Below are positions 5,887-60,608 of a stretch of DNA of 64,000 nt, piece after piece (the stretch's first letter is position 1; each line of letters begins with the position of its first letter). The DNA lies in assembly GCA_043228905.1 (NCBI GenBank), contig JBHGNT010000018.1, forward strand, positions 13,020,001 to 13,084,000. The letters run 5' to 3'. This DNA is from Azolla caroliniana. Its lineage: Eukaryota > Plantae > Polypodiophyta. The notes beneath the pieces were generated by a model, which searched no databases, had not been told where the DNA came from, and saw only the letters and a program-made list of their open reading frames with translations. The translations under genes were made by a program, and so were the position numbers.

Positions 5887-7700
5887 ATGCACAACCCACC
5901 TTTCCCCATGGCTCTTGATATTCCGCATACCCTCTGCCAGTGGTCCATCGCCCACCAGTTCGGAGGTTACATCCGCGTTGTCGACGCTCAGCCCCACCCC
6001 AACGCTCAGGACATTGGTGCCAAGATGAACATCGACACCATCACGAACGCCATGGTCTGAAAGAAGCTCGGCCTCAACTCGCTGGGGGACCGATGTTTGG
6101 AGATCCCTCCCACCGCCGTACTGGAGAAATATTTTTGCGAGTACCCAACTTCCGTTAAGGCGTACAAGATCTAGTAGGTACCAGACATTTTCTTCCGGGA
6201 TGTCGCCAAATTCATGCTGGAGGTCGCTTATGTGCACCCCAAGTCATATGGGATGCCAAAACACAACGCAGGGGTGATCATCGCCACGTATGAGGAAGCC
6301 CACATGGATTGAGGATACATTACTGGTGCGGTCTTACGGTCTGGGCTCATTGCCATATAGGTGGGGAAGAAAATGGTCCCCATCATCGCACAGTAATTCA
6401 TCGTATTGTTTCTGCCTATTTTAGCGCTTCCACGCTCCAATCCAGCCAAGCCAAGAGGTGATACAAATGCCAGTCTCTGGTCATAACAAGTGACTCGACG
6501 AACTCCACACGAGCGAATGGCAAGATGAAGAAATCGAGCGGTTGCAAAACCTCGCGCCGACTGAGCAAATTTAAATCGGCAACCGGCACCTCCATGTCCG
6601 CGGAGCGACGGATGGAAACTGGGGAACCGGACATCTAGAGGAGCGAACAGAACAGGGAGGAGCCTCCTTGAAGCCCATAACAGAAACGCCACCTGCTTGG
6701 ATCGAAAAAACGGCCAAGGCCTCACAAAGCACACAACCACACAACAGGTCATAGATGCACTAGTCGAACCATCAACAATAGTCGTGCCCGACATGATTGA
6801 ACGAACAACACTGAATGTGAAGCTGGAACAAGGGAAGGGATTCCTAATTTCTGAGAGCAAACTTCTCTCCTATAGAGAAATCTTGGCCCTCGCACATGAA
6901 TTCACGGTAATCTTAAAGTTCGGCACATCATTCGAACTCGTCGAGTTCTTGGCAATGGAGAAAGTCACCATGGCCAAGCACCAAGCCAAAGAACATGCCG
7001 AGAGACAAATGATCCAGCACTCACTGGATTCATAGAGCCGGAAGAAAAAAACTCTTTGAGCAAAATCAGGCGGAAATGGCACATCGACGGCGAGCACATG
7101 GCAATCAAATTGCCAGTACTACATATGGCCCAGGTCGAAGTTCACCAAGAGTTGTCTCAGGTGAGACATGGAGCAAAGGACATGGCTTGCAAGAATAGGC
7201 ATGCGAGGAAAACGAAAAAGGAGCACAAGTGGCAGATACAAGAGCTGCAATAAAATATGGTTGAACTACAACTCCAACTACAAAGCGCCACATACATGCC
7301 CCCCAGAAGGCTCCTCCACGGAGGATAGTCGTGCATTGCACGAGGAGGTAGAGGCACAACAACCGATAGTGATCAAGGCAAAGAAAGCAACAACCTTGGC
7401 AGAATCGGAAATCAAGCGGCTCTGGTCAGAGCTTAGACAGTCCTTGGACTGCAAAAAAGGTGTTCGGGCCACAACCCAGAAAAATGCGAAGGCTCTCCAG
7501 GACAAGCTTGATGCATTCATGATCGTGCACAACCGAACACTCGCAGCCCTGGATGAACAAAGGAGGCTACCTCTCACACCGAAAAGGCGGTAGTGGAACT
7601 TCATGAGGCGAAGTTAAAACAAAAAGAATGGTATGAAGAGTAGATGGTAGATGAAAATAAACTGGCGGAGGAAATCCAGCTCCGCATACGGAATGAAATG
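5887..7700 (+). pseudogene. Decayed accessory ORF of a gypsy-type element (copy 1), unknown function
   Basis: Manual translation aligns with 38796-36113(-): LEKYFCEYPTSVKAYK..DVAKFMLEVAYVHP..IIATYE vs LRSYFIDYSPSAKAYK..EVAKFLLEVAFVSP..IIATYD, and FGTSFELVEFLA vs FGTSFELVEWLA. Confidence 0.8.
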
Positions 7701-8239
7701 TGCATGTGTTCATACACATACTCATCCTCACACACTCATATACATTACAAATACACATCAACGACATTATCGTGTTCCATCCTTACACTACCCCATACAC
7801 TCCTACAAGTAACACATGGCACGCTTGTGGGACAACCCACTCGCCATGTAAACTCTTCTCAACCGGAACTCCATCGGTTGTCTCAACGATCGAAAATCCT
7901 TCGATCGGATTATAGCTCTAGGATCAATAACTTTGATCAGAGCTTCTCTTGACTCGAACCTTCTCGTTCGGTCAACATATCCCTCAGTTGGATTACACAC
8001 CAATCGGCTCGTCCACTGCGGCATGGGTCGTGAAATTGTGTTGCGTGTATGGTTTTTCTCTGGTTTCTTCATGTGAGTTGTGTTTTGTATCCCTTCAGGT
8101 CTTTCAAAAATTTTGTTGTTTTTTCTACTCTCAGTTTTTTCAAACAATTTATTTTCTGCCCTTGAGTTTTCGAAATTCTCGTCTTTGCCCTCAAGCTTTA
8201 AAAATTTCGATGATGCCCTTATGTTTTTGAAATTCCTCA
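7700..8239 (-). repeat. Putative 3' LTR of element C
   Basis: Minus-strand purine tract aagagaagggaggggatag followed by TGAGG at 8239; no partner LTR in the window, distal end uncertain. Confidence 0.4.
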
Positions 8240-9078: not shown

Positions 9079-9737
9079 CTATTTGTTGGTTGTCCATGCT
9101 TCTTCATAATGTGTTTTCATTTGCGCCCAGATCTGAGACTCCTTCTGATGGAGTCCTTCTAGCCGGCTCATCTCATTGTTGAGGCGTATTTCGACATCTT
9201 GGGTGTTTTGTCGCTCGTGCTCGAGCTGCTTGTCATACCATACCTGCTTTTGTTGTGCCGCCTCCCTTAACATCGTGATGATTCCTTCTTTCTTGGTTCC
9301 CTCCTCATTGAGTTTTTTCAGCTCGGGCTTTGTTTGACTATGTGCGATTATTTCAGCATTGAGCTTGTCTTGAAGTGCTTTGACCGCCTTACGCCCTTTC
9401 ACTCGAATGTCCGCTTCTTTGTCCGAAGACTGGCGGAGTTCTGACCTACGGGCGTTCGATCTTAGATTCAGCCAGCTCGTTAGCCCATTTTGCCTTGGCC
9501 GTCATTACCGCTTGGGCCTCTGTCTCCTCCCGTAGAGCCTGCATTTCAACTATCAGGAAAGCGTGGACGGGAGTTGGTTGCGCCATTGGTGCGTTGTGTT
9601 TGAGCTCCGTAATTCTCCGTTGTGCTTCATTCAACTGGTGCTAGGTTACCTTTATAGTCTTCCACAAATTTTTGTTCTTGGCAGCCACATCTTTAGCGCC
9701 AATGGTAACGGTCACCAGCTCCCTATGTACCTCCACT
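9079..9737 (-). pseudogene. C-terminal coiled-coil part of the gypsy accessory ORF (copy 3)
   Basis: VEVHRELVTVTIGAKDVAAKNK / ALREETEAQ..KAKWANELAESKI / VKALQDKLNAEIIAHSQT align with copy 1 VEVHQELSQVRHGAKDMACKNR / ALHEEVEAQ..KAKKATTLAESEI / AKALQDKLDAFMIVHNRT. Confidence 0.8.
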
Positions 9738-10455
9738 AAGGCCGTGGTACTTCCATTTCTCCTACATTGATTTCTTCCATTGTCAACATTTTGACTCGTT
9801 GAGAGATCTCCATTTCTCGCTCAAACGCATCTCGTGCTTTGCTCAGATCCAGTAGTGATTCCGGATCTGGTTCGTACTCCTCGCCCTTTGGGACAACCGA
9901 CGCTACGTAATAGTCAGTCATCTCGAGGATGTCTATCTCGAACAACGGTAAGATCTGTGGGTTTTCGTCTAGGTATGCTTCTAGTTCCGTATCATCCATC
10001 CCTTCCAACATGTTGACCTCTTCCGTATATAGTGGTGTTATCGTTGTTGTGGGTGACGTCGTTTCCTTCGTCGGCACCTGGACCTTGGCTTGGCCCAATT
10101 GAAAGCTAATGCAGTTGTACTGTTAGTTCTTCTTGATTTTAGCTTAGCGTAACCATGGTCGTCCTAACAAGATAGGGTACACACCTAGAGCATCAAGAGC
10201 CAGCACAATGGTTGCAATTTCAAAGGCATGACCACCGATTACGATCCGTAACTTCCGAACCAATCCCAACGGTCTGGTGGAACGAGTATCTGCCATACGG
10301 AGCTAGAACGGGCATGCTTCCCACTCCGTAATGTCGAGGCGATTATACGTGGCTTTACTAATCCTGATCCCCCATCGATAATGCAACCGGTGATTTCTTG
10401 ACCTTGTAGCACCACCTTAATAGCCAGATTGTGATGATCAAACACAGTTGGTCTT

Positions 10456-11093: not shown

Positions 11094-11103
11094 AACTCCC
11101 TTT

Positions 11104-15127: not shown

Positions 15128-15156
15128 TTTCTGTGTTGTTTGCTCTGATACAAGAT

Positions 15157-30779: not shown

Positions 30780-33700
30780 TAAAAGTACTCCCCCACCCCA
30801 GTACACGTCCTAGCACTTCTAGATTCTAGAGCCAATTCCTGTTTCATGGATCGAAATTTTGCCCAAGCTTCTCAGATATCCTTAAGAAAACTTCCTTGCC
30901 CCACATCTATAGTAGTCATTGATGGTCGTCCCATTGCTTCCGGGAATATTGTAGTAGAGTCAAAACCCATTCAAATTGTCCTAGGTAGTTTTGTGTGTGT
31001 AGTAGCATTTAATATAATTAGTAGTCCAGAGCATCCCATTGTCCTGGGATTAACTTGATTTGAATTACATAATCCAGACATAGATTGGAGAACAAGAGAA
31101 GTCTGATATCGACAACCCCAAGAATGTACTCATCGAGTTTCGACCATTTCACTACGTCAATTACGTGAAGAAGGACACAAGAAGGCAATGTTCCTATTTG
31201 CAATATCAGTACATCCTTCCAGTACTATTAAGGAGGAATCCTTAGTGCAACTTCCAGCGAAATATCATCCTTATGCCGATGTATTTGACAAGGTAAAAGC
31301 CGGTATTCTTCCTCATCATCGTCCCTATGATTGTCCCATCGATTTACAACCAGGAGCAGAGCCAACTTGTCACCCACCGAGTTAGAAGTCCTTCGAGCCT
31401 ACATAGAGGAGAACTTGGCAAGTGGGTTTATTCGTCATTCGAAATCTCCGGCCGGTGCACCCATTTTCTTTGTCAAGAAGAAAGATGGCTCACTTTGTCT
31501 TGTCGTTGATTACCGCAGCTTGAATAAAGTCACCATCCGGAATAGGTATGCACTTCCTCTTACATCAAGTCTTTTAGAGTGAGTTAATGGTGCCAAGTTT
31601 TTTACAAAAATCGATCTATGAGGAGCGTATAACCTCGTGCGGATCCGACCGAGAGATGAAGGGAAGATCGCCTTTCGCACACAGTATGGGCATTTCGAAT
31701 ATACTGTTATGCCATTCGGTCTAACCAATGCACCCGCAGTCTTCCAACACATGGCAAATGATATATTCAGAGACCTCTTGGATATCTGTTTGATCATCTA
31801 TCTAGATGATCTATTGATTTATTCGAAGACCAAGGAAGAGCACAATTCTCAAGTACTATTAGTACTAAAAAGACTCCGCAAGAATGGTCTTTATGCCAAG
31901 CTAGAAAAATGTAGCTTTGACTGCAAGCAAGTGGAATTTCTAGGCTACGTCATCTCCTCAAAGGGCATCTCCATGGATCCAACTAAAGTCCAAACTGTGT
32001 TAGAGTGGCAAATTCCACGGTCGGTATGAGATGTACAATGTTTTCTAGGTTTTGCTAACTTCTACCGCAAGTTTATATAGGATTACTCGAAGATTATTTT
32101 ACCTCTCACACAACTTACAAAGAAGGGACAAGCATTTCTTTGGTCCAATGAAGCGGACATGGCTTTTCGGCATCTTAAGAAAGCCTTTACATCAGCTCCT
32201 ATTCTAGCTCATGTGGATACAAACAAACCATTCATCATGGAGGCTGATGCATCGGGTTTCGCCCTCAGTAACATCCTTTCTCAACAAGGAGATAAAGAAG
32301 AGTTACATCGTGTGGCTTCTCATTCGCGCAAATTCGATGCCGCGGAAATCAACTACGAAATACATGACAAGGAATTATTAGCCATCGTGGATTCCTTTGT
32401 GCAATAGCGGCATTTCTTAGAGGGCTCTCCACATCAAGTCATCGTCTTTAGTGATCACAAAAATCTTGCTCATTTCCAGAACGCTCGGGTGCTAAATCGA
32501 CGGCAAACTCGGTGGGCTCAATTCCTCATGCGTTTTGACTTCAAAATCACATATCGACCGGGGAAGCAGCAAGGAAAAGCAGATGCGCTATCACGGCGAT
32601 CATATCTTGCACCTTGTTCTGGTGATCCAGCGTTTGATAATCAAAAGCAAGTAATCTTGGGACCAACACGATTGCACACAACGCAGATTTTTCACACCCC
32701 AATGGATTCCCGGATTACCGATGCCATACGTGGGAACTTGAAGACAGACAGTTTTGCTCAAGACATTCTGGAGCACATTGATACCTCTCGGGCATCCTGT
32801 TCCCAATCTCAACAACCAGGTATAGACTACCGACAATTCGAATATCATGATGGTTTGTTATTCTTTAAAAAGCTTGTATATGTCCCCAATTGCTCCTGTC
32901 CCCTTCAAATCGTCCAAAATTGTCACGACACCTATACGGCGGGACATTTCGGTAGTACTAAGACGTTGGATCTCGTTCAATGATCTTTTTGGTGGCCCCA
33001 TATGCGAAGTTTTGTCGACGACTACGTTCAGACTTGTGATGCTTGCTGCCGAGCAAAGATGACCCGACACCATCCATATGGCTTGTTGGAACCCTTACCG
33101 ATTCCAAGTAAGCCGTGGCAGTCTATTTGTCTTGATTTTATCACAAATCTGCCAGTCTCGAAGGGGTTCGATGCTATCTTAACTGTCGTCGATTGATATA
33201 CTAAGATGGTACATTTTGTGCCATGTACTAAGGTCATCACTAGCGAGGAAACTGCCGCCCTTGTCAAGCGTGAGGTATTTCGACATCATGGCCTCCTAGA
33301 CAGTATCATCAGTGACCGAGGACCTCAATTCGTCTCCAAATTTTGGCAGCATCTCTTCAAGATGCTCAAGGTCTCTGGCAACCTCTCCTCCGGCCACCAT
33401 CCCCACACCGATGGGCAGGCGGAACGAACAAACCAAACGCTGGAACAATATCTCCGGTGTTTTCTGAGTTATCAACAAGAAGATTGAGCCGATATTCTCC
33501 ACTTTGCGGAGTTTGCATATAATAATGTTGTTCACTCCTCGATTCGGGTCTCCCCATTTTACGCTTATACCGGTTCTCATCCTCGCTTGTCGGTGATCGA
33601 CACCCCGGAGCTACCTACCAATCCTCGTGTTGAGGATCATTTGGAGAGGCTACGCAACATCCAGATGGATCTCTCTACTCATCTTTGTCATGCTCAACAC

Positions 33701-34230
33701 ACAGAAGACTTATGCAGATCGTCATCGGCTTCCCTCCTCTTTTGCCATCGGAGATCGAGTATGGCTCTTACGTCGTCACATCAAGACTACTCAATCGTGC
33801 GACAAGTTGGATTAGCGATGACTCGGTCCTTTCCGTATTATTAGTAAGGTTAATGATGTCACGCTTCCGCCTTGATCTCCCTCCGCATCTTCAGATACAT
33901 TCGGTTTTCCATAGCTCTCTTCTTGAACCTTATAAAGCAAATACTATTCCTGATCGTGTTACACCACCGCCGCCCCCGCTTGAGTTGGAAGCTGGCCCGG
34001 AGTATGAAGTTGTTGTCGTCCTCGATTCCAAACTTGTTCGCAACAAACTTTATTATTTGGTCGATTGGCTCGGCTATAGTCCGAGCGAACGTACTTGGGA
34101 ACCCGTTGAGCATGTCGCCAATGCTCAGGATCTTCTTGCTGAGTTCCACCGAAAGTATCTGGACAAACCCGGTCCGCACTCAGCGCCGACTCATCCCACT
34201 CGTCTTCTTAAGGGGGAGATAGTGTCATGA
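30780..34230 (+). pseudogene. Chromovirus D pol (PR, RT, RNase H, INT, chromodomain), many stops
   Basis: [74 protein letters not shown], chromodomain YEV..VLDSK..YYLVDWLGYSPSERTWEP. Confidence 0.95.
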
Positions 34231-34651: not shown

Positions 34652-36112
34652 ACGGGCTGGCCGAGAGAATGAATCAGACCATAATGAAGAGAAAGAATCA
34701 GACCTTAACGGGCTTGCACATGCTAAGTTACGGAAGACGTTTTGGGCTGAGGCGTTGATGACGGCAGCGTATGTGATAAATTGATCACCCTCAGTACCCT
34801 TGGACGGTGATGTTCCACAAAGGGTGTGGAGTGGCAAAGACGTATCTTACCGACATATGAGGGTGTTTGGTTGTCTTGCCTATGTGCATGTGGCAAAGGA
34901 CTAGAGGGGAAAACTAGACCCGAAATTTCGACATGTATATTTCTTGGCTACGATGACGACGAATTCGGTTATCATCCATGGGACTTAGCTAATAAGAAGG
35001 TGATTAGGAGTTGTGACATTGTATTTATGGTGGAAAAGACAAGTGTCGATTGGGTGATTGAGAATAAATCTCCAATTACTGAATCGAGCCAAGTCGATGC
35101 TCGGCCGAATTGAGAGGAAATCGAATTAGAGCGAGTCGGCCGATTTAATACTCGACAAAATCGAGATTCGACTCAAGAACAAGGGGTACCGGCTGAACGA
35201 GGAATCGAATCCAACTCGGCAGAGAAAGTCAAAGAAGAACCGACCATGCCGAACGGAGGCCAAAGATATCCCTTGAGAGAGAGAAGGGCCCCCGGAGATT
35301 TCCGGATGAAGAGCGTGTGTTGCTTACCAATGAAGGGGAGACGGAAAGCTTCGAAGAAGCTAAACAAGATATCCACACCCAAGAGTGGTTGAGTGTCATG
35401 CAAGAGGAGATGGAATCCTTGCATGAGAACCACACATATGAATTGACTGAGTTGTTGAGAGGAAAGAAGGTGTTCCGCAATTAGTGGGTATACAAACTGA
35501 AACCGGGAGAAAGCAGAAATCCACCAAGATACAAAGCCTGAATCGTCGTGAAAGGTTTTCAACATAAGAAGGGTGTGGATTTTGACGAGATATTTGCCCC
35601 GGTGGTCAAGATGACATCCATCTTAATAGTGTTGAGCATAGCGACCAGCATGGATCTCAAAGTCGAGCAATTGGATGTCAAGACTGTTTCTGCACGGTGG
35701 TCTCGAAGAGGAGATCTATATGCACCAGTCGGAAGGATTCGTTCTTGGCTCCACCCCCCACCCATCAACACTTGTCCCAGCCGGCGTGCCAAAATTATTG
35801 GGTTGTTCGGCCGACAGTTAGTTACTGTATCTAACTGACAGAATAAGTCGAACGTTCTTCTTGTAACATTCTATCAAGATGATTGTGGTAGGAAGTGAAT
35901 AGAAGAACTACTCGGTGATTAGAAATTGTGCTAGGTAACCTTGATCGACTACTTGGTTTTAATTTAATTACTGAGAATAACAATGCACAGAGAGACCGTC
36001 GACACAACAATACTCTAACTATTATCTTATGTTAATTCCAAAATAGAATGATAGATTTATAATGTTTTTTGTTTCCTCTTTTATAGGTAAAATCGAGAGT
36101 CTCTTTTCAAGA

Positions 36113-38796
36113 TTACACTTGCCCTTGTTTGGCAAGAACAATTCCAAAACTATCTAACTCCTTCATATTTCTGAACATTGTCGACTCCGACCCTTTCACA
36201 CTTGTTTGATTTTGCCCTTCCGACCATTTAGCCGACCGGCTAACACTTGGCACACTCGTAGGATAGTGCTTGGCACGGTCGAAACCCCGTCCTTGCTTAC
36301 TCCTGGTGCCCTGAGGGTTCGGGGTCGTCATCGTCGACGCCATCTTCTTCGTCGTCATGGCGAATGTCAAACAATGAAGGTTCTTCTTCAGTCCCTTGTT
36401 CGGTGTTGGTCGCGTTTGCTTCCTTGTCCTATCCTGTTACATCATCGTCCTCTACATGTAGTTGGTCTGTGGAAGCTCCTAGTTCAACAGTCTATTGTCG
36501 GCATTGTCTTTCGTAGCCATCCAAGCGTACCAACATGTCGATGTCATGGGCATCAAATTCCTCCATTAAACGGGTTATCTCTTCCCTATGAATTGCCGCG
36601 AGTTCATACAAGACTCGAGCGAGGTCTTCTTGAATTATTTCAATGGCTTCATCAGTCATCTTGAACAATCTTGCGTCCTGCTTTTTGCAATTATCCCTGT
36701 CAACGTGTAATAATTGCAACTCTGTAGCCCGCACTGACCAGGTCTTCTAGCCTTTGTCGAGGGTATCGGCTACCAACTTCAACATTTTTTTCTTGTGAGC
36801 CCGTAACATGTGTCAAACTTTGTCTTCACCTATATTGACCTTATACTACATTGTGACCAATTCCTTTCGCATGTCCGCTATCCGAGCCTCCGTCGACCCT
36901 TGTTCAGTCATTAACTTTCTATTGTCTTTGCCTCCCATTGTTGCTCAAGAATCTTCTTTAACTCTTGAATTGCATTGTCCACGTTCTCCAACAATGCTCC
37001 TATCATGGTCTTGGCAAGTTCAATGCGGTCTTCCATCTTTTTCACATTTTCCTCGGCCTTGGCAGCTCTGTCGTTTGCCTCTTCGACCTTCTTCTCTGTC
37101 TGACGTAGCTGATCCCACAATTGTTGGTTGGGTACATGTGGAATGCTCACAAAGCCACAATGTTGCATATGGTCTTCAACCTGCTTTACCTTTTCCTGTG
37201 CTTGTCGGAGCCGCTCCAATAGTTCAGTGTTGTCCTTCGTAGCTCTCGAATATTGGTCATTAATAGATCAACTGCCACCGTGGCCTTTTTGCATCCTTCG
37301 GTCATGTTCTATTTAGCCTTGTTTGTTCTCGCATATTCTCAATGGAATTCCACCAGAGCCAGGTTCAATGGAGGCATCTGAATTGCCTCTCCCCTATACT
37401 TGGCGATCCTTTGTCGGGTGATTCGAACCAACTCCGGTTGTTCCTCTGGTTTGATTGCACCTATCATGGCCGTTTGAATCATGATTTGATCCCTATGTTC
37501 TTGGGCCATCATGGTAGATGCATACTGCAATATATGAGCTAGCCATTCCACAAGTTCAAAAGATGTTCCGAACAATAGAATTGTTGTTAATCCATGTGTT
37601 GTCGGCAGTAACACTAGTAGTCCCAATACCTCACTTGGGGTCATCGAGGAAGATTTCCTCTTTCCTAGACAACTCGTGTCGGTTGGATCGACACGCATCT
37701 CGTGTTCTATTTGTTGTACTGAGTGTGGCAGTGATTGTTGTTCTTCGACCTGTTGCCTCTTTGCAGCTTGTATATCTTCTTCTGTTTGTTGAAACCTCTA
37801 ACTCTTCTGCTTCGTTCGGGGTGATTGTGGTTGATTCTTAGCCTCGGGTGTTCGGTTTGATTCTTGAATAGGCTGGGTTTGAGAAGACGGTTCCTGAACA
37901 GGTTGTGATTGGGGGTTCGAAGTCGACTCCTACTCCTACTAGGGTTCGGTTCGGTTTCCGATTGTTGGGTTGGTTCCGACTTGTGTCGATGCCGGTTCTT
38001 GCCACTCTTCTCGTGGCACTTTCCTCCTAGCCCTTGATGTTGATCTCGGTTGTGTTGGTTGCCCCCTGTCTTTCCTTGGGGTCTTACGCCGACTCTCCGT
38101 ACTTGGTGTCGGGTAGAGTACTGTGAGCCATCAACCGAAGATGGGCTTCATTGGTTTGCCGTTTTGTACCCCTTTCAGTTGATCCCTCAGTGCTTTGCCT
38201 ATCAGATATCCCTAGTCGATTGTCTCCCCATCATATGTGGCGATAATAAATGCAACTCTTTGTTTGGGCATACAATTGAACCTCGGACTGACGAACGCCA
38301 CTTCCAACAAGAACTTGGCAACTTCCTGAAATAACTTGTCCTCTCCCCCCTCAGTCTTGTATGCTTTAGCTGATGGCGAATAATCAATGAAGTATGACCT
38401 TAGGATCGTGGGTTCCAGAGGGTTTGTACCATCAAACCCTTCCCTTTTTAGGTTCAAAAATCAGCGTACCTGTTTATTGGTGATCTTGGCTACATCGATT
38501 TGATTTATGATTTCTGAAGCTCGTGGATAGGGTTTGACATCTGCAATAATGTATCCTTGAAGACCCTTGGTGTGCAACCATTGACGAAGTCTATCAGATA
38601 CAGGAATCGACATGGTTTCATCTTCTCTCATCTTGGAGTTGTTGGTGATTGTTAGAGAATAGAGAAAGTGTCGATCTGTTTGCTGGTTCCAGAAGGAAGA
38701 AGCATGAAAGCTCTGTGCTATGTGTGCTCGAAAACGTTTGTGTTGTTGTGAGACACAAAATGTGGAGGAAGAGTTTTTGGAGAAAAGTTGGGCCAT
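36113..38796 (-). pseudogene. Accessory ORF downstream of element E integrase (copy 2), unknown function
   Basis: Chain of same-strand ORF fragments 38461-38796, 38212-38457, 37339-37698, 36911-37219, 36492-36734, 36113-36370; homologous to 5887-7700; heptad-rich C-terminal half. Confidence 0.8.
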
Positions 38797-39051
38797 GTTT
38801 TTTTTTTCGAGGGGTTTTAATGAATAAAAATATGCTATTAATGGTTGTGGTAGTATGAATATAGTAATAATAGCTTTTAATAACCATCACTCGTAATAAA
38901 TAGTAAATGATAATTGTCTTGTCCATTTATAATCTAAAAAGGACAGTGCCAAGAATTCATCATAACAAGAATCAATTTCTGTTATATTTTTGCCAAGATT
39001 TTTTTTTTTTTTTTCTAATAAATAATATTTACACTTTGTACCCTTACCACA

Positions 39052-42000
39052 TCACTGAGTGGTCGGCAGATTGTCAACGTCGACTCTGATTCTAAATGGA
39101 TTTTTCGGTGTCGGTCCTTGATAAGGCTTAAGTCGGAACCCGTTCACCCATGTTGGCAGGATTTCACCAGCTAACGTTCTGACTTGATATGTCCCTTTTT
39201 TACTGTTGACTAACCAAAATGGTCCTGTCCACCAAAATCGAAGTTTGTTGGGCATGGGACCTATTGTTGTTTGGAATACCAATACTGGCTTTCTGACTTC
39301 GAACATCTTTTCCTTTTGTTTTTTGTGTCGGTCAACAAATGCCTTTGTTTGTCTTTGTTTATGTTATAATGCACACATGGCTTGAAGCCGACACTCTTCC
39401 ATTACTAACAATTGTTCCTTCCTTATTCCTTCCGATTGTTCTTCATCCAATCTTTCAGTGATTTAAACTCGTAGTGTTGGAATTTGGAATTCGACTCGCA
39501 TTACGACTTCGAGTCCGAATGCCATTCGGAACAAGATCGATTTGATAACTATCTTGTATGAAGTCCGATATGCCCACAAAGGACTACGAGGCTTGTGATC
39601 CCAGTCTGTTCTATTCTCATTAACGATTTTCCTCAGAATCATTTGTAATGTCTTGTTGGTCAATTATGCCAATCCATTGGCTTGAGGGTAGTACGGAGTA
39701 CTTCTTTTATGTACTACTGCATATGAAGTGGATAGCTCATGTATAATTTTATTTATAAATTGAGTACCTTGATCACTTACCAGTTCAATTGGGCAACCAA
39801 ATCGACACCATAGAGATTCATAAAGAAATTTTGTTGTGGATGTGGTCGTGTTATCTCGAAGTGCCTTGGCTTCAACCCACTTGGTATAGTAGTCGGTGGA
39901 GACCATAATATAGCGATTCCCAGTCTTTGCAGCTGCCCGTTTGAATGGTTCGATAAAGTTGAGACCCATTTTTGAAATGGTTCCAAAGGTAATACCGACT
40001 GATGTGGCGTCCTATCTTTTTCTGTGGGTTGGCAGGTCCGCTGACATAAATCGCATTGTCGACAATAGTCGACTACGTCTTTGAGGTAGTCAGCCACCAA
40101 ATCTTCCTTGTCATTGTTTCCCCAGCATAATGACCGCCGACAATATCACAATGGGCGTCGCGCAAAACTGCTTCTTTCTCGTGTTGTCGAACCGCACGCC
40201 GCCATATCTTCCAAATCTTCATTGCCATTGTTTCCCCAACATAATGACCGCCGGCAATATCACAATGGGCCTCGCGCAAAACTGCTTCTTTCTCGTGTTG
40301 TCGAACCGCACGCCGCCATATATTCCAAATCTTCATTGCCACTGTTTCCCCAGCATAATGACCGCTGGCAATATCACAATGGGCCTCGCGCAAAATTGCT
40401 TCTTTCTCATGTTGTCGAACCGTGTGCCGCCATATCTTCCAAATCTTCATTGCCATTGTTTCCCCAGCATAATGACCTCCGCCCATATCACAATAGGCCT
40501 CGCGCAAAACTACTTCTTTCTCGTGTTGTCGAACCGTGTGCCGCCATATCCTGTGGGCTTCTTTATGGTATAATGTGTCATTCAAGAGACAAAAGTTTCC
40601 ACTTCTTACCGCTAGCATTTTCCTTTCATCTAAGGGCATTCCTTCTAGTGGTAGTCCGATAATAAGGAAAATCATCATTTCGGTGATCCATAAATTTGCT
40701 TGATCTTCATCCATCCCTAGGGATGCCACTGTGTCGACTCGAAAAAATTGAGCGTCAAGAAAATCATCCTTTACTCTTGTACATGACTCTAGTCGACTCA
40801 GATAGTCGACGACTACATGTTGTACCCCTGGTCGATGGATTATGTCAAATTCAAACTCTCATAGCAATAATGTCTAGCGGGCCAGTTTTACTTTTAACTC
40901 CTGCTTGGACACTAAATATAATAATGTTGAATGGTCAACATGGAATGTGAATGTTTGGCCCAACAAGTAATGTCGGAATTTATTGATACTATAAGTCATG
41001 CTGAGAGCCTCACATTCTATTGTTGAGTAGTTTCATTCAGCCGTTGAAAGCTTCTGACTCGCATTGTAAACTGGTGTGTACCAATTCAGATCCGTCAGTT
41101 GCATTAACGAGCTTCCAATTGCCACATCGGACGCGTCAACAAAGACATGAAACTGCTTCTCCCAGTTGGGAGGTTGTACAATTGGTACCGTAGTGAGCAT
41201 CTTCTTAAGGCAATCGTAAGCATCTTGCTCTACATTCGTCCATTGAAAAGGTGTTTTATGCACTGCCGCATGTAAAGGTGTTGCCACATCGGCTAGATAC
41301 CGAATCATCCAACTATGCCTAATTTGGCCCAAAAATCTACTGAGATCTTTCAGATTAGTCTACGCCAGAGCTTCTATTATGCTTCCATTATTGCTTTCAC
41401 TTTGTCGGGTTCGACTGTTATGCCTTCCTGACTAACAATATGGCCGAGTAACATACCACTCATTACTCCGAATGCACATTTAGTAGGATTGAGATTAAGT
41501 TAGCCTTGTCGACATCGTTCTAGACACGGACGTAAATGCTCAAAATGATTAGGTTTTTTACTATACATGGCAAAATCATCAAGAAATACCTGCATAAATG
41601 TAGGTATATAATTAGTGAATATTTCCTGAATGACCCTCTCAAATGTTGTTGGGGTTGTTTTTAAGCCAAACATCATTACGACTACAAAAAATACTCCCCA
41701 TTCAGTTACAAATGTTGTTTTATCCTGATCCACTGGGTGCATTTGAAACAGATTATAGCCACTGAATCCATCCAGAAAGCTATAAATTTCATGTCCTTCC
41801 ACCGCATCCAAAACTCCATCCGTAAAGGGTAACGGAAATGCATCTGTTACCATAACTGCATTAAGCTCTCGATAGTCGACACATACCCTGCTCTTTCCAT
41901 TCTTCTTGGGTACGACTACGATTCGACTTAACCAAGTTTCCATCTTCACTAGTTGAATAAAACCGACTCTGAGTAGTTTGTCGATTTCCTCTTTTACTTT

Positions 42001-43040
42001 CATTGCATAATTGGGATTTAATCGGTACCGACGCTGTTGTATAGACTTTGCTTCTTGATGCAAATTTATCTGATGCTAACAGAAGGTTGGATCTAATCCC
42101 TTCATATATTCAAATGACCAGGAAAACACATCTTTATATTGACGCAATGAATCAGTCATCTTAGCTTTTTATTAGTCGACTCCAATTCTTTAGTTATCAG
42201 AATGGTCTTCGGTTCAGCATGGGTGTCAGCTAAGTTTAATTCTTTGAGTGCCGATGCTTGGACTCTTTGGGACATCTACATCTCCCTTTCTGTAACTTCC
42301 TATTGAAGTCATAATTCCTTCAATGTTTTGTCATCAATGGGAATTTCTTCTTCTTTATCTTCCTCACCCATATCTGGTGTAAACGTGTGCATGATGTTGA
42401 CTTTGAATAGTGGAATGATCTTTGGATTGTCTTAAAAATATTGGTCTTCTTCGGCCTCATCCAATCCTTCCCTCATGTTTACTGCTTCGGCATGAACTGG
42501 TAAACATTGCTGAGTTGTATTGTCCATTTCTTGTGTTGACACCCGAATTTTACTCTTACCCTTCCAAAATGTTAAGATGGTATTGTTCCAATTCTGTTTG
42601 ATATTTGTTGTCTTTGGCCAAGGTCGGCCTAATAATAATGGATATGCACCAGTTGCATCCAAATGAAGCACTACTGCCAACAATGACCTCTAATTGGCGA
42701 ATTAGACCCATGGCCAGATTGTACTTGTGTCGGCCATTCTTAACCAGAAAGGACATGTGTTCCATTTAGTAATTCCGAGCCAATCACATGTGATCTTATT
42801 AATCACATTTACCCATAATCCACCGTCAACAATAGTATCGGTGACTTCTTGACCCCGAATTACTACTTTTATTGATGGACTTTGTTTATCCATTACTGTC
42901 GGTCCGGTGATCGTATTGTTGTAATTAACCGACACTTTTTCAGTCCCATTTTGTGCAATAATTGTTGCGACCTTCTCCGTGAATCTGGGCACTAATTTTA
43001 ATAATCCCGCCAAGGGTAATGACCCTTGGCAATCTGCCAA
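39052..43040 (-). pseudogene. Element E pol (PR-RT-RH-INT), disrupted
   Basis: ORF fragments 42702-43040, 41500-42063, 41033-41332, 40073-40729, 39664-39969, 39463-39663, 39052-39306 carry the canonical motifs. Confidence 0.92.
40097..40550 (-). repeat. In-frame tandem repeat, 4 x 114 bp, in the integrase zinc-binding region
   Basis: ccaaatcttc recurs at about 40097, 40211, 40325, 40439; translation IWR..VRQHEKEA.LREAHCDI.GGHY.GETM..KIW four times. Confidence 0.95.
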
Positions 43041-44937
43041 GATTTTCCATGTTTCTTCATCTTCCAGTGACGTTTTTGGTGCCGACTATCCAACCAGTTG
43101 TGCCTCAGTTGATGCCGCATTGTCTTGCATCATTTTGGCGAAGTTATTGTTGTTGGCTTCCTCGACCCATTCCTTAGTCGCCTTCCGTACTACTTCCTGC
43201 ACCTCCCACTCCGATTGTTTACCTTTACTACGAGTGGCTACTTGCTATATTTTTAGTACCACCATATTTACTGTCGATGCCTTTCCTTTATCTTTCGTGG
43301 GGCATTGATTTTCATACTGTCCATCTTTTTGCATATATAGCTATTTAGAATTGATGAGCCACTAGATTCTACAGGTTCATATTGAGGTTGATGAGCTCCT
43401 GAGATTCAGAATTATCCCTATCTCTGGAATCATGTTGAAATTGCTGAGACCCCTTCGGCTTACGGTTGTCATTAAATCGATGATTTGGTGGTCAATTATC
43501 CTCATTTCTTCTATAGTTATTGGACCTTTTTTCATTCGGATAACAACTTCGCTTGTAGGGATGTCGGTTATTGTTATCTCGTCAGGGTGAGAAGTTCCGA
43601 TCATAATTATTTCGATTATCCCATTGGTAGTCATCTTGGTGATCCTCATCATATCAGTCATTACACTGATATTCATTACATCGATAATCGTCTCTCTGAT
43701 TATCATCTCGATGACTATCATTCTGCCAGTTATCATCTCTATGGTTATCTTCACACCGAGAATCATCTCGCTGCTCCGACTGATAATGATCATCATCACG
43801 CGACCGATTCCAATTTTCCTGATAATTATTTTCAGGATGTATTTGTCGAACCAATGCAGCTCTTTTATTGAGTAGATTACACTCACACTACTTGACTGAA
43901 TGAGCTTTGAATGGCAAATCATACAATGAGTGCGTATACTGCATTCTATTGTTGATTGCCCTGTGTTGAGGCAAGTAGTACATTGAACAGCTTGTCTGAA
44001 CCTGAGCTCCTCTAATGTAGGTAAGTTCTAGTGTAACGTCGACATGCTCATACTACTATTATTGTGTGTCTGATCCATTGTCAGAGCTTTACCTACCACT
44101 TGCTCCAATGATTGATTCCGGAAATCGAACACTGCTAGAGTTGTTCGAAGAGGTTCACGTATAGCCTCCGGGAATATATCTTTCAATTCCTCATCTGGAA
44201 TTGGCCATGAAATCTAAAGTCGAAAATTCTGAAATCGGATCACAATATGTGATACCGTTTCATGTGGTTCCTGATAGGCCGCATAGAATTGACCTATTAG
44301 ATCCTTCGGTGGGATCCATTGATGAAACAATTGTGTGAATTTCGTAGCTAATTGTTCAAACGAGTCGAACGCTTTTGGCCCATTCTGGGCATACCAATTT
44401 GTCGATGGACCATCAAGCGATAAGACAAACTTGGTTGCGGCCGGTAGTCGCTGAGCCACATGGTTCATCTCCCATGTTGTCAAAAAATCTCTTCTATGCG
44501 CTTCCGCATCAACGCCATCTCAATATTTCGAGTAAGGGTAAGGCATATTGTCTACTCCCCAAATGTCGTAAAAAGAACTTTGATCAATTAAATCGGGCAT
44601 TGCAACTCCCCCTCACCTTCTTGCTGAGTCTGATTGATAGGTACCGAATTGTCAGCACTCCCACCTCCTACACGTTGACTAACCGATTGTGTGCTTGGTC
44701 TTTTTCGGCCTACAGATGTAACCAAACTAGACGACATCCATTCCCTTCATCACGGCAATGGTACCGAAAGTTTGAATCTTTCATGGTGGATCACAATTTT
44801 AACAAGACACAAGCCGATCATTGTGTCTTTGTTAAGAAATATGAGGAGGATACTTTCTCATCCTCCTGTTGTATGTTGATATGCTAATTGTAGGATAGGA
44901 CCCAAAGAAAATCAGAAGTTTGAAGAAGGCTCTGAGC

Positions 44938-47273: not shown

Positions 47274-50255
47274 CGCCCCCTCAAGCTCAACTCGGGTCGG
47301 TTCCTTTTGATTGATGTCCGCTTCGGCTGGTATCCGGTTCGGACAATCTCCGGTGTCCGCTTCGGCTTGTACCCAGTTCGAACGGTATCTAGTTCTCGCT
47401 TGTACTCCCCCTCAAGCTTGGCAAGTCAAGGATCGTCAATCCGAGGTCTAACATAAATTGCTGAAGCTTTTCGGCTCCTAGGGCCTTGGTGAAGATGTCA
47501 GCTATCTGAAGGTTTGTGTTGATGTGTAGAAGATTGACATCTCCAACCTGAACACGCTCTCGAATGAAGTGATAGTGCACTTTGATATGCTTTGTGTGTG
47601 CGTGGAATACTGGGTTCCTAGCCAAATATATATTGCTCATGTTGTCGCAGTAAATGGGAGTCGGATCCTTGATGGGAATACCCAGATCCTTCAAAATCCT
47701 CTTGAGCCATACGGTTCACATGCAGCTACGGTTGTGCCCCTGTATTCGGCCTCCGTACTCGAAAGTGCGACAGAAGGCTGCTTCTTACTACTACAAGATA
47801 TTGCTCCGCTACCGAGCGAGAAGACAAATCTGGAGGTCAATCGTCGATCAGATTTGTAGCCTGCCTAGTTTGTGTACCCTTTGAGTCGTATTGGTGTGGT
47901 CGATGTGTAGAGAACGTCGTAATCCATTGTGCCACTCACATATCGTAATACTCTCTTAGCGCAATCAAAATGCATATCTCGTTTGTGCCGGAGTCAGCAT
48001 CTAGTTTGAGGTTTTGATCGAGAGGCGTGGCAACCGATTTGCACTCAATCATCCCGAACTTGCATAACAAGTTGAGGATGTAGTGTCATTGAGAGATCAT
48101 AATGCCAGTCGGAATCCGAATTACTTCGATGCCAAGGAAGTAATGGAGCTCCTTCATGTCCGTCATCTCAAATTTTCCAGAGAGGAGGGACCTAACCTTG
48201 TTGATGTCGATTAGACTTTCACCTCCAATGACCATATCATCCACGTATAGGATGATGACAATTAGGCTTCTAGAGTCATGTCGTACATAGAGGGAGTTGT
48301 CAGATTTCGACATTCGAAAGCCGATTTGATGAAGATATTGCGTAATCTTTGAATGTCAAGCACGCGGTGCTTGCTTGAGGCCGTAGAGTGGCTTCTTGAG
48401 TCGGCACATGGCTTTCAGATGAGTACGCGATTCGAAATCGAGTGGTTGCACCATGTACACCTCCTCTTCTAATTCGCCTTGAAGAAAGGCATTCCTGACG
48501 TCCATTTGGTGGAGGTGCCACCCTTTTGCTTCTGCAAGTGCGATCACGGTCCGCACCGTCGTCATCTTTGCTACCGGGGCAAAGGTCTCCTCATAGTCGA
48601 CTCCATGTGTTTGTGCGTATCCTTTCTCTACGAGTTGAGCTTTGTAGTGGTTGACAGAGCCGTCGGCATTATACTTCACTTTGTAGATCCATTTGCAGCC
48701 AATTGCCTTCATATGTGGTGAGTGGGGAACGAGATCCCATGTCTTGTTCTTGTGTAGTGCACTCATCTCCTCAGTCATTACTTCAATCCTTCATGGGTTC
48801 TTTGTGACTTCAGAAAAGATTTTCGACTCCCGTATTGTTGCCACCTCCATCATAAATGTGTAATGGTATGCCATGTACTCATCGTAGCCGAATCGGCTTA
48901 TGGGGTTCTTTTCACGGGTGGATCGGCGAAGCTTCTCGTTTGTGGATTCTAAGGCTTTCTTCACTCCATTTGTCCGGATGTCAAGGCCTTTGAACTCACT
49001 ATCGAGGGAGTGAATCGATTCGATGCCGTCAAAATGATCATCTTCATACTCCGGCATTTTTGTCTTCCCTTTGTCCAGATTCGAACTCGGCCGAGATGTG
49101 CTTTGATCGCTCGGAGGCTCTTGTGGCCCACTAAGCCTTGTCATAATTGGGCTTTCTTCGAACATGCACATGAGCCGATCTTCGGCTTCTATCTCTATTT
49201 CGGCGGAATCCAAGTCGAGCGGAATCGAAGTCGAAGTTGTCTCTGGTGCGTACCAAGATGCGGACTCGTCGAAAACGACATCTCGACTTACTCGAGATTT
49301 TCGAGTTGAGGCGTTATAGCACTTGTACCCCTTTTGCTCCAGTGAGTATCCTACGAGGATACATTTCTCCGACTTCAGGTCGAGCTTTTGTCGCTTCTCG
49401 TCGGGGATGTGCATGTACGCAATGGAGCCGAATATCTGAACATGCGATAGGTCCGGCTTCTTTCCGAAAAACTTCTCGTGTGGAGTAAGTTCCTGCACAC
49501 CCAATGTCATACACCAATTCATGAGGTATACGACCGTGTTAGCCACTTCTGCCCAATACGACTTCGGCACGTGCTTTTCGTTCATCATGGGTCGTACTAC
49601 TTCGAGGATGTGCCGATTCTTTTGTTCAGCCACTCCATTTTGTTGTGGCGTATGTCGACACAAAACTCTCGTCAAATTCCTTCTTTCCGTAGATACGCCG
49701 TAAACTCATCCGAAAAATATTCATTGCCTCCATCTGATCAAAGGCACCGTACGTGTCGATTCTTAGCTTTTTTGACTCCACTCTTGAATTTTTGGAAGTG
49801 TCCGAACACTTCGCTCTTTTGCCGCATCAGGTAGATCCAAGTGTGCTTAGAGAAGTCGTCGATAAAGGTCATGTAGTATAAGCATCCGTCGAATGTCGTC
49901 GTTTGAGCCGGTCCCCATACATCATAATGAATTACATCGAGTATGCCTTTACTTACATTCCTATCCTTCGAAAATGGATGCCGTTGTTGCTTGCCGAATT
50001 GGCAAGCCGCATATACGCCTTCAATCTCTCTCTCTTTGAAGGTTGGGCGTTCGATGACGATTCCTTTCAATTGCATCGCCTTGAGCTTTTGGAGGTTTAT
50101 ATGGCCAATCCGCTTGTGCCATAACTCTATGTCGAACTCGGCTTTCGTGCCTTTTGCGAACATGGTCGATTTCATCTCGTGCAAGTCGAGAATGAACATT
50201 CGGCCCTCTCTTCATCCACGCGCGATGAGTCGGCCCTCTTTTTCGATGAAGCAAC

Positions 50256-50844
50256 TGTTAGGAAACAGGTCCCTCCGGAAGGATGAGAAGGATCCGGCTA
50301 CGGAAGACCCGGTGAGAACCGGATGAGGAGTACCCGGCAAGCGCCGGATGATGCAGGCCCGGTGAGGAGTGCTCACCGGATGAAGGGACATATTCGTAAA
50401 TATGTCTTCTGAGAGTCCATCGGGGCTATATTTGTAAATAGCCGAAAAGTCATATTAGTATAAATATGACTTAGGGCAAACTCAGAGCGTAGTTGTTGAT
50501 AGAGTGGTTGTCATTCTTGTTGGCGCAAGATTAGAGCACAACCGTGTACAGAGAGAGAGAGAGAGAGGAAGAGGTTGTTGCCTCTGTTGTAACTGCTGCT
50601 TGTGGCGAAGATAGCAAGCTCGAGGTCGTTGCCTCGGTGCTTCACTATTTGTACATTGTGATATAGTGATAGTTTGCAGTCTGTGGGTTGCCGTGGTTTT
50701 TTCCCTAGTTTGGGTTTTTCCACGTTAACATCCTGTGTACTCTTCTCTCCTTTGTGTCGTGCGTTTCCTTTCCCGTTTTCTGTGTATGATTCTAAACTCG
50801 GTTGTGGCCGAGCGTTGTTCATCGGGAACGTGAAGTTCCTGTCA
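50256..50844 (+). repeat. 5' LTR of copia G
   Basis: TGTTAGGAAAC...CCTGTCA, AC, TGGTATCAGAGC. Confidence 0.95.
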
Positions 50845-50873
50845 ACTGGTATCAGAGCGAGACGACGCAGGAA

Positions 50874-53800
50874 ATGGACGATTCGTTGGGCGGCATGTTC
50901 AAGCTCACTGGCTCCAGCTATTCAGTATGGAAGTCGAAGATGAGGGACATGCTTGTGGTTAAAGATCTTTGGTTGCCGGTTCAGTTCGGGGACAAGAGAC
51001 CGGACAAAATCGATGCCATGATATGGGAGGTGATGCACATGAAGACAACGACGTACATACGGTGCTTCATCGACATGAGCCTATACAACAACTTCAATGA
51101 AGAGAGCAAGGCTTATGAGCTCTGGGAGAAGATCGGCATTATGTTTCAAAACAAAAATGTTGTTAATCAAGTTTCGGTATTCCGGAAGCTAGTAAGACTC
51201 CGGTACCAAGATGGCTCTAGCATGGCGGAGCACATGAATGCCTTCCAGGGGCTGATACACCAGGCAACTTCATTGGAAGTACCTCTCGCCGATGAGGTAC
51301 TAGTGCTACTCCTACTTGGTTCCCTCCCGGATAGCTGGGAGACGTTGGTTGTCACTTTGGGCAACGCCGGGCCGGAAGGAAAACGGTTATCCCTAGCAAG
51401 AGTGAAGTCGAGCTTGCTAGATGAGGAGGCGCGTCGGAAAGATAAGGATATGAGCTCCGACTCCAAAGTGCTCCTTACCGAATCGAAATGTGGAAGACAT
51501 AGAAACCGTACTCCCCAGAACCGGGAAAAGTCGGGGACACGGTCAAAATCAAGGGGGAGGCCTACTTGCTTCTATTGCGGCAAGCCGGGACACTTCCAAA
51601 AGAACTATCGGCATTTTCGTAAAGACAAGGAAACCGACGGTACCGATTCGAAGCGGACACTGGACCGGAACGGTAAAGACCGGAGAGGGCCGGACCAGAA
51701 GGGAACGACGGTAATCGCGGCAAGTGAAGAAGAGTTGATGCTCATCACCGAGGAGAGTGAGCTAAACCTTGTCGGCGACGAGATGACCTGGGTGGTCGAC
51801 TCAGAAGCGTTGTTCCACCTTACCCCGGACCAGAAATGCTTCTCATCCTACTCAGCCAGTGATCACGGTTGTGTCCGGATGGGGAATGAAGGTACATGCC
51901 GAATTGTCGGCATAGGAGACGTGTGGTTGACAACACCAACCGGATGCAAGCTGCTGTTGAAGGATGTCCGACACGTTCCGGAGGTTCGTCTGAACCTGAT
52001 ATCAGCCGGTCGGCTAGATGATGAAGGCTACACGGGTAGCATCCGGAACGGTGCTATGAAGTTCAGCAAAGGGAGCCTGGTTTTGGCTCGGGCTTGGAAG
52101 GTCAACACATTGTACCTGATGAATGCCCGGTTATGTCCGGAGGAAGTGAACGTGGCCTCTGACACTGCTGGTGAGTTGTGGCACAAAAGGCTGTGTCACA
52201 TGAGTGAGAAGGGGATGAAGAGGCTGCAGACGACAACCTCATTCCAGTGAAGAACGTGCACTTGGAGAAGTGCACTGATTGTCTGGCCAGTAAGCAAAAC
52301 CGGACCTCCTTCCGACCAAGGCCACCGATGAGACGTAATGCACCACTGGAGTTGGTGCATACAGATGTTTGTCAAGTGGACATGAAGTCACACGCAGGAT
52401 TGCAGTACTTCGTGACGTTCATAGATGACCACAGCTGGAAGCTGTGGGCCACACCGTTGAAGACGAAGGATCAAGTGCTATCCGTCTTCAAAGAGCTCCA
52501 CGCGAGAGTGGAAAGAGAAACCGGCCGGAAGCTGAAGGCGGTTCAAGCAGATAACGGAGGTGAATACCGGGGGTAGTTCGAGGAGTACTGTCGCTCGAAG
52601 GGAATCCGGCTCGAATTTACCGTGCCGAAGACGCCGGAACTAAACGAGCTGGCCGAGAGGATGAACCAGACCATAATGGAGAGGGTCCGGAGTATGCTGG
52701 CGCATGCAAAACTACCCAAGAAGTTTTGGGCTGAGGCACTGTCGATGGCGACATATGTGATAAACAGATCACCCTCAGTACCCTTGGACGGAGACACGCC
52801 GCAGAGAGTATGGACCAGTAAGGAAGTGTCCTACCGGCATCTGAAGGTGTTCGGGTGTCTCGCGTACGTGCAAGTAGCTAAGGACCGGAGAGGAAAGTTA
52901 GATCCAAAGACCCGGCCATGCATATTCCTCGGTTACGGCGATGATGAGTTCGGCTACTGAGTGTGGGACCCGGTTGACAAGAAGGTATTCCGGAGTCGAG
53001 ATATTATCTTCATGAAGGACAAGACGCTCGCCGACTGGGAGTCGGAGAAGAAGATAATGAACTCCAAGTCAACTGGTAAGGATCGATTCTACGATCAGCA
53101 GACCCAACCGGCAAGAGACCGGTTAGCACTCGAGGAACCAGCCGGTTACGGTGAGGATGTCGAACCGGCAGAAGAAGAAGTAGAGGAAGCTGAAACCGGA
53201 ACCGGCCAAGACCCCGAATCGGATTCGGATGAAGAGCAAATGGAGGAGCCGGTTACCGAAGCCCAAAGACGGAGATATCCTCTCAGAGAGAGAAGGCCCC
53301 CCTGGAGATTTCCGGATGCAGAGCATGTGCTGCTAACCGATGAGGGGGAGCCAGAAAGCTTTGAAGAAGCGAAGGATGACAACCAAAGCCGCAAATGGTT
53401 AAGTGCCATGCAGGATGAGATGGATTCCATGCGTGAGAACCATACGTACGAATTGGTGGAGTTGCCGAAAGGAAAGCGGGCACTCCGAAACTAGTGGGTG
53501 TACAAGTTGAAACCAGGAGATGCCGGCAAACCCCCGAGATACAAAGCCAGGATCGTGGTGAAGGGGTTCCAGTAGAAGAAGGGCGTGAACTTCGACGAGA
53601 TATTTGCCCCGGTAGTAAAGATGACCTCCATCCGGATGGTGCTGAGCATAGCGGCTAGCATGGACCTCGAGGTAGAGCAGCTAGATGTGAAGACGACATT
53701 CCTTCACGGTGACCTCGAAGAGGAGATCTACATGCAGCAACCGGAAGGATTCGTGGAGAAAGGGAAGGAGCACCTGGTATGCCGGTTGAAGAAGAGCCTG

Positions 53801-54919
53801 TACGGACTGAAGCAGGCTCCCCGACAATGGTACCGAAAGTTCGACTCCTTCATGACCGATCAAGGGTACCACAAGACGCAGGCCGATCACTGCGTGTTTG
53901 TGAAGAAGTTCGAAGGAGACGACTTCCTGATACTCCTTCTGTACATGGACGACATGTTGATCGTCGGACGAGACCAAGTCAAAATACTGATGCTGAAGAA
54001 GGCTCTCAACCGGACCTTCTTAATGAAAGACTTGGGTCCGGCAAGACAGATGTTGGGGATGCATATCATCTGGAACTGGCCAACGAAGCAACTGTGGCTG
54101 TCACAGGAGAAATACGTGACAAAGGTGCTTCAGCGGTTCAACATGTCAGATGCGAAACCGGTCGGATCGACGCTTCTGGCAAACTGCAGGTTATCTGGTA
54201 AGCAAAGCCCGAAGACGAAAGTAGAGAAGGCTGATATGATGAAGGTTCCATATGCCTCTGCCATCGGGAGCTTAATGTACGCAATGGTGTGTACTCGACC
54301 GGATATCGGATACACAGTCGGAGTGGTGAGCCGGTTTATGAGCAATCCCGGCAAGGAGCACTGGAACGCAGTCAAATGGATACTCCGGTACTTGAAGGGC
54401 ACTTCGAATATGTGTCTCCAATTCGGCTCCGGTAAACCTCAACTTGACGGTTTTACCGACTCGGACATGTCGGCTGATGTGGATACCAGTCAGTCTACAT
54501 CCGGGTATGTAATGACATATGCAGGGGGAGTTGTTTCGTGGCAGTCGAGGCTGCAGAAGACGGTTGCGTTGTCAACCACGGAGGCGGAGTACATGGCGGC
54601 TGTGGAAGCCAGCAAGGAAATATTATGGATGAAGGACTTCATCGGAGAGCTTGGTATCCGGCAAGATGAATACCGGCTCTATTGCAACAGTCAAAGTGCC
54701 ATCCACCTTGCTAAGAATGCGGCCTACCATTCCTGGACGAAGCATATCCAGAGTAGGTATCACTAGATCCGGGAAAGAGTAGATGACCAGGAGTTCATGC
54801 TTACGAAGATCCACACGGCCGAGAATGGGTCAGATATGCTGACCAAAGTACTGATACCCGACAAGCTGGATGCATGCCGGAAGCGGATCGGACTAGTAAG
54901 ACATCCCATGCCGGAGTGA
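50874..54919 (+). pseudogene. Copia G gag-pol, one frameshift and a few nonsense codons
   Basis: Long ORFs 50802-52250, 52247-52576, 52622-52960, 52961-53494, 53585-54766 with all copia domains in order. Confidence 0.95.
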
Positions 54920-54929
54920 AGGGGGAGTT

Positions 54930-60504: not shown

Positions 60505-60608
60505 CTGCAAGACCAAGAACAACAATAAGAACATGTCATTGCTTCATGTATTTGCAACCTATAAGAAAATATGATATGTTACATGATGACCCACTAATCC
60601 GCACTGAC

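Follow-up and report, generated by a model that had tools for sequence, protein, structure and literature searches.

An accessory gene kept by selection behind pol in gypsy retrotransposons of the fern Azolla caroliniana, with a fold probably of the PMD/VANC type

The function of the extra ORFs of plant retrotransposons has been described as unknown (PMC7264820, PMC4408406; published work is cited here from the available portions of each text). ORFs that combine a PMD with a coiled coil are known from Tat elements of seed plants; moss Tat-like elements lack an extra ORF, as do Tat I/II elements, and the first appearance was placed in gymnosperm lineage III (PMC4408406). The available text of PMC7264820 mentions neither ferns nor mosses. 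The origin of the PMD, in gypsy elements or in host genes, has been called 'fully open' (PMC5418596). VANC, encoded by VANDAL DNA transposons, attaches to short motifs of the element encoding it and strips methylation (PMC5735166). Further comparison literature is found in PMC7466625, PMC12859917, PMC10886601, and bioRxiv 2022.12.06.519325.

Here we followed up three copies of an extra ORF in the window, i.e., the whole stretch of 64,000 nucleotides analyzed, one of them in a gypsy element designated element E. The features are listed below; omega values are Nei-Gojobori estimates from 10 young family A copies.

39052..44743 (-): Gag-PR-RT-RH-INT remnant of element E, on the same strand as the extra ORF
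40097-40550: four tandem copies of a 114-bp repeat, within the zinc-finger region of the element E integrase
38614..39051 (-): spacer between pol and the extra ORF, AT-rich, containing a poly(A) run and TATA-like words
36297..38613 (-): extra 3' ORF remnant of element E, from the ATG at 38613 to a stop at 36297, ~2.3 kb
38107..38613 (-): N-terminal globular domain, predicted PMD/VANC-type fold
37640..38106 (-): low-complexity P/Q/S/T/E linker, omega 0.38
36890..37640 (-): FGTSFELVE helix block and long predicted coiled coil, omega 0.20
36504..36884 (-): C-terminal block, conserved and helical (W-x2-W...ELxxLRAD...D)
36248..36288 (-): tRNA-Arg(UCU)-matching site at the PPT position, with a T-arm match, a small hairpin, and the 3' 17-18 nt ending in CCA
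35804..36245 (-): 3' LTR of element E, TG...CA, ~440 bp
35774..35791 (-): PBS-like copy of 18 nt, lying 11-12 nt beyond the 3' LTR and complementary at 16/18 positions to the tRNA-Arg end
5908..7700 (+): copy 2 of the extra ORF, truncated at its 3' end, family G/B-like
9097..9745 (-): copy 3 of the extra ORF, coiled-coil part only
7817..7833 (-): another site matching tRNA-Arg, located downstream of copy 3 and ahead of an LTR start (TG at 7814)

On the strand of the extra ORF, homology to gag-pol extends from 44743 to ~39052, which puts the ORF of element E in sense orientation and 3' of the integrase. The original prediction had described a sense ORF remnant of ~2.7 kb at 36113..38796. The remnant is real, but it is shorter, and that range also takes in the start of the 3' LTR and the pol-ORF spacer. 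It carries 14 in-frame stops in its aligned parts and two frameshifts (near 37240 and 36915). Compared with the intact 822-aa homologue P0004, it is 41% identical over residues 1-465 (9 stops) and 35% identical over residues 615-819 (5 stops), with two frame changes between the aligned parts. A tblastx comparison of 35801-39100 with the window gave a match at 5977-7026(+) with an E value of 6.8e-24, and blastn gave the self-match alone, which bears out both the colinear peptide blocks reported between element E and 5887-7700(+) and the claim that the copies are alike in protein and little alike in DNA. That second copy is present but starts at 5908. The third, reported on the minus strand, is also real; it corresponds to residues 407-618 of a family-B ORF (46-50% identity). 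All three were said to follow a gypsy integrase, which is true of element E but not of the others: copy 2 has no pol homology upstream of it in the window, and copy 3 is joined directly to a protease remnant (10487-9751). All three copies are broken.

No partner LTR for element E was found within the window. After its 3' LTR, positions 35745-35803 (-) contain the PBS-like copy, AAG, and ~25 nt resembling the LTR start of the L130 type, followed by copia sequence; this junction is aberrant. The window is rich in transposable elements. A separate gypsy element with RT, RH, integrase, and a chromodomain (Chromo, PF00385) occupies 31358-34230 (+), and two copia copies that are 85-90% alike lie in inverted orientation at 50245-55354 and 10984-15706, the plus-strand one having 99% identical LTRs and 40-bp tandem repeats. 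A fragment of a host sodium/bile-acid symporter (SBF) gene is present at 60105-60578 (-).

Two genome searches returned 3741 and 4324 first-look candidates, and all 150 candidates scored in each search matched. Among the 150 scored in the first search, 18 had open frames of at least 750 aa, and 10 of these 18 loci make up our family A sample. All 10 have ~457-bp LTRs that are 98.3-100% identical, 5-bp TSDs, gag-pol, and a stop-free ORF of 806-822 aa that ends ~45 nt before the 3' LTR, so intact copies linked to gypsy pol do exist. The same gene occurs in other families at 25-45% identity; one family-C element combines identical LTRs with a 1952-aa gag-pol frame and an 892-aa ORF. Across families, the stop-free ORFs (806-892 aa) are ~36% identical in the N-domain. 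The carrier families are very abundant and recently inserted. Among nine loci picked by hand for their 3' site (see below) and not for the ORF, ORF domains adjoin the site in five and are absent in four, indicating that the two are not always together. One family-A copy, L096 (G000:C1:21120468, ~1470-1523), is internally deleted; its LTR is followed by 54 nt of copied tRNA at the PBS, and its deletion join shows 5-nt microhomology and falls exactly onto the start codon of the extra ORF. Outside the genome, a profile search of 1.84 billion representatives gave 352 matches with an E value of ≤0.001, mostly short unnamed fragments, and word-index homologue searches gave 7-8 unnamed ENA proteins and nothing else. 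P0157, which appeared among the library matches, was rejected as a repeat artefact. As for the host, one of its genes, a U-box gene, has its top named matches in Adiantum and Ceratopteris (59-60%), followed by proteins of gymnosperms and lycophytes (53%) and of liverworts (50-51%); this single gene, compared by identity, points to a fern.

In the 10 family A copies, omega was 0.19 for the N-domain, 0.38 for the linker, 0.20 for both the FGTSFELVE box and the coiled coil, 0.22 for the C-terminal block, 0.75 for the acidic tail, and 0.26 for the whole ORF, compared to 0.28 for the integrase region of the same elements. The past purifying selection that had been suggested is borne out, and the value for the whole ORF is not near 1. 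Element E itself gave 0.14-0.16 against two relatives and 0.35 against the closest decayed one; against copy 2 the comparison is saturated (pS 0.78, pN 0.40). Integrase and N-domain trees of 12 elements recovered the same three groups, and the extra ORF evolves several times faster than the integrase in these trees. The low omega together with the matching trees shows that the gene is inherited with pol and kept by selection.

The architecture proposed earlier stands in part. The FGTSFELVE block is common to families A and B only; C and E have another helix there. The block at 36884-36504 is a second conserved C-terminal block that had been missed, and it is modelled as two long helices (pLDDT 71.5, pTM 0.36). 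In intact homologues the linker appears to start with a basic, NLS-like patch. In agreement with the earlier description, there is no evident transmembrane helix, as peak 19-residue hydropathy (KD19) was 0.87-1.32 in all four near-complete homologues.

The earlier reading did not recognize the family, and at the sequence level this holds. Scanning the ORF, its separate N- and C-domains, and its matches against Pfam gave no meaningful family; the Pfam HMMs for PMD, Transposase_32, ATHILA ORF-1, and Transposase_28 gave no match, and the DUF1985 HMM (PF09331) matched 0/100 aligned members and 0/50 whole proteins. PDB sequence searches with the extra ORF found nothing, nor did Foldseek against the PDB, a viral structure library, and VIA, for the families represented there. 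Hence, no described extra-ORF family matched strongly in sequence. Genome searches for PF10536, PF20167, and PF03078 gave no match anywhere, controls included, and are uninformative. The predicted fold does provide a link. The N-domain model shares a core fold with VANC21 (PDB 9lnk) over 162/170 residues at 9% identity; the match spans 95% of the domain and has a lead of 4 Z units over the second-best of 48,161 chains. Independently of this match, the Atlas points to VANC's own domain family, DUF1985 (0.80), and its relatives, the nearest named clusters being Athila ORF-1/Transposase_32 (0.84). The N-domain is probably a remote member of the PMD/DUF1985/Transposase_32/ATHILA group; PMD and Transposase_32 had been named earlier as families to compare.

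Like VANC21, the extra ORF would encode a transposon-borne accessory protein with a globular domain and an extended coiled coil. Unlike VANC, which is described as dicot specific (PMC13547354), it is carried by a fern LTR gypsy retrotransposon and not by a VANDAL/MULE DNA transposon, its domain is more compact (170 residues versus a span of ~220), and it has no conserved Cys/His cluster. Tandem cognate motifs were not found either: there was no 7- or 8-mer excess in five of six families (one copy per family, exact words only). With the PMD ORFs of Tat/Ogre it shares its place after pol and before the 3' LTR in a gypsy element that is not a chromovirus (PMC4408406, PMC6317226) and, as in host MAIN/MAIL1, a PMD-type domain with a coiled coil, the fold link running through VANC-MAIN homology (PMC5418596). 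It differs from them in having no Pfam PMD match and in its orientation, as the first Tat PMD ORF was antisense (PMC4408406). In Athila, too, an OTA-type element without aRH and with a 5-bp TSD carries a 3' ORF in sense orientation (PMC11728184), and a coiled-coil oligomer has been predicted for the Athila domain (PMC13547354); the Athila HMMs do not match our ORF, and our elements have a tRNA-Arg-type PBS in place of Asp/Asn/Ala and no PPT.

The element itself is OTA-like, and it departs in defining traits from Tat, from Athila, and from Phygy and Selgy (REXdb lineage table, PMC6317226, in its available part). The tRNA-Arg PBS and the 5-bp TSD (10/10 elements) are those of OTA|Tat (Tat III, Ogre), but no aRH was found among the Pfam matches of the 1813-aa gag-pol, where the RH-to-integrase gap is ~115 aa, and neither an aRH nor a chromodomain was seen in the gag-pol of element E. 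The absence of aRH, the 5-bp TSD, and the extra 3' ORF are those of OTA|Athila, but the PBS is not, being for tRNA-Arg(UCU) in families A and B. The 4-bp TSD, the tRNA-Trp/tRNA-Ala PBS, and the absence of an extra ORF that mark Phygy and Selgy are not found here. As modelled, the extra ORF would be a new, compact, sense-oriented PMD/coiled-coil-type variant in a fern, structurally linked to VANC. We found no printed account of it; Steinbauerova 2011, the VANC21 structure paper, and the REXdb element files lay outside the scope of our search and may bear on this.

The copy in element E is a dead copy of a third gene, kept under selection behind pol by a Tat-like gypsy lineage (aRH-less and primed by tRNA-Arg). 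Its product is predicted to have the PMD/VANC fold and would likely bind the DNA or chromatin of its own element and counter silencing; we consider the chances of this explanation as a whole evenly balanced. Because of the predicted VANC21 fold and of what VANC does, motif binding and demethylation, the product would most likely be a nuclear, oligomeric factor that shields its own family from silencing, a reading by analogy to which we give about half of our confidence. A spliced RNA of its own, or one transcribed from an internal promoter, would give rise to the extra protein. In the window spacer (38614-39051) and those of L041, L053, L110, L112, and L118, a poly(A)-rich run follows the pol stop and TATA-like words lie ~150-300 nt before the ORF start, and the spacer is a possible internal promoter. 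A nuclear location is predicted from the basic patch and the absence of a transmembrane helix, and self-assembly from the long coiled coil, as modelled for the VANC and Athila proteins (PMC13547354). Once in the nucleus, the oligomer would dock on LTR or spacer DNA via the conserved basic residues K84, K118, K/R120, and K154 and keep its family transcribed, as VANC does for VANDAL transposons. Against anti-silencing count the failure to find tandem target motifs and the fact that host PMD proteins work in the opposite direction, in silencing (PMC5418596).

The main rival accepts the fold but lets the protein escort the pre-integration complex, as a chromatin tether or nuclear-import aid replacing the missing chromodomain. 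The chromodomain-less pol, the basic patch and coiled coil, the failure to find tandem motifs, and the shared inheritance with integrase would all suit this; nevertheless, the sole solved relative is an anti-silencing factor and the ORF is separate from pol, with no built-in route into particles, and we consider it unlikely. That relative, which derepresses, also speaks against a MAIN-like self-restraint in which the protein, bound to its own element, would dampen or time expression as a copy-number control. The silencing role of host PMD proteins (PMC5418596) would favor such restraint, but the families are still very abundant and recently inserted, making it improbable. If the VANC21 match were a chance helical resemblance, we would be dealing with a new fold in some other nuclear or RNA-level role, such as RNA silencing suppression; the domain coverage, the Z margin, and the independent Atlas result make this quite doubtful. 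An env-like or movement protein carrying particles between cells would fit the sense 3' position known from the env-like ORFs of Athila and SIRE and the coiled coil (PMC7264820, PMC4408406), but none of the four proteins has a hydrophobic segment of membrane-spanning length and there was no match among viral structures, and we hold it to be very improbable. Of the functions suggested earlier, anti-silencing thus gains specific support from the predicted fold and particle trafficking gains none. That all three window copies are broken could suggest a neutral passenger or chance reading frame, an explanation of negligible probability that is ruled out by selection (omega 0.19-0.26) and by intact, pol-linked ORFs in families so diverged in the N-domain.

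The second finding concerns replication. A PPT-like tract had been reported before the LTR, but the 15 nt preceding the LTR are 57% purine on average and 67% at most (29 sites). At this position the families examined instead carry the last 18 nt of tRNA-Arg less one base, 2 nt before the LTR, with a T-arm match and a small covarying hairpin upstream (2/4 compensatory pairs, 97% paired). A pattern for this site gave 1283 matches, versus 13 for the control; in element E, also 2 nt before the TG, it is decayed (13/17 and 8/10 matches). A self-folded T-stem was weakly supported (no compensatory pairs, 83% paired) and was set aside. In families A and B, the PBS is the complement of the 3' end of a host tRNA-Arg(UCU) gene. 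In family A, e.g., L042 (4567-4600), it lies unusually far from the LTR end (11 nt) and pairs with 13 nt of the tRNA only. Eight of the 11 genome matches of the mature tRNA end lie at PBS junctions, where 31-70 nt of tRNA have been copied, and show minus-strand priming by tRNA-Arg, as in Ty3-type replication (PMC5371799); what differs from that system is the tRNA-Arg(UCU)-matching site in place of the PPT and the copied tRNA at LTR starts. Families C, D, and E have the PBS TGGCGACCAC, for another tRNA, yet the same 3' site, and we therefore rejected pairing of the site with the element's own PBS. We take TGGCGACCAC to be of the tRNA-Arg type; a tRNA gene for it was not found, nor was read-through of this type of PBS.

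Eight matches have a perfect tRNA end immediately ahead of an LTR start; six of them represent three events, and two are unassigned. In the first event, 57 nt of mature tRNA precede a family-C 5' LTR (three matches plus a fourth copy); in the second, exactly 18 nt lie at an LTR-LTR junction (two matches) of family A, whose own site is not identical to the tRNA; in the third, 18 nt precede another 5' LTR (one match). The modified base at position 58 of the tRNA is consistent with a stop at 18 nt. These copies are probably footprints of an unremoved plus-strand tRNA primer and as such are genomic evidence for a plus-strand priming route; template switching onto the tRNA or a built-in RNA mimic acting as primer is also possible. 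Where the site departs from the tRNA, G to A changes predominate: 16 representatives show 24 of them and 4 C to T changes (p 0.002; 0.017 once six explained by another isodecoder are left out; the samples are non-independent), a pattern that wobble pairing of the tRNA to minus-strand DNA would allow. At L132/L133 (G000:C16:17527334-17527844), three tandem family-A LTRs are joined twice by a U5 spacer and the exact 18-nt tRNA end, which looks like an integrated two-LTR-circle junction. L107-L109 (G000:C2:11996001-12026000) is a tandem family-C amplification of full, deleted, and solo-LTR units with 57 nt of mature tRNA-Arg before the 5' LTR. L130 and L131 belong to another LTR family (start TGTTGATGGG/TGTTTAGAGG) and show a perfect 18-19-nt tRNA-Arg end before the LTR; they lack the hairpin and, within 1.5 kb, any homology to pol or the extra ORF. 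Troyka elements were considered as a PPT-less precedent, for which the available text of PMC12440569 gives no support. We found no printed account of plus-strand tRNA priming (subscription journals were outside the search).

Taken together, the extra ORF is a real, selected accessory gene whose fold is probably of the PMD/VANC type and for which anti-silencing is plausible. On the modelled fold, the VANC/PMD type would occur in gypsy elements beyond the seed plants. With an ORF that is under selection, intact, present in high copy number, and predicted to fold like VANC21, anti-silencing by an LTR retrotransposon becomes a concrete hypothesis, and the young natural copies are test material for it. 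More tentatively, and with a good deal of doubt, this fern gypsy lineage may hold, as a functional anti-silencing gene, the PMD/VANC fold in its most compact and probably early form and may also have dropped the PPT, priming both strands with a host tRNA. If so, retrotransposons would have used the fold as a weapon before there were seed plants, and its descendants would include host MAIN/MAIL and dicot VANC.
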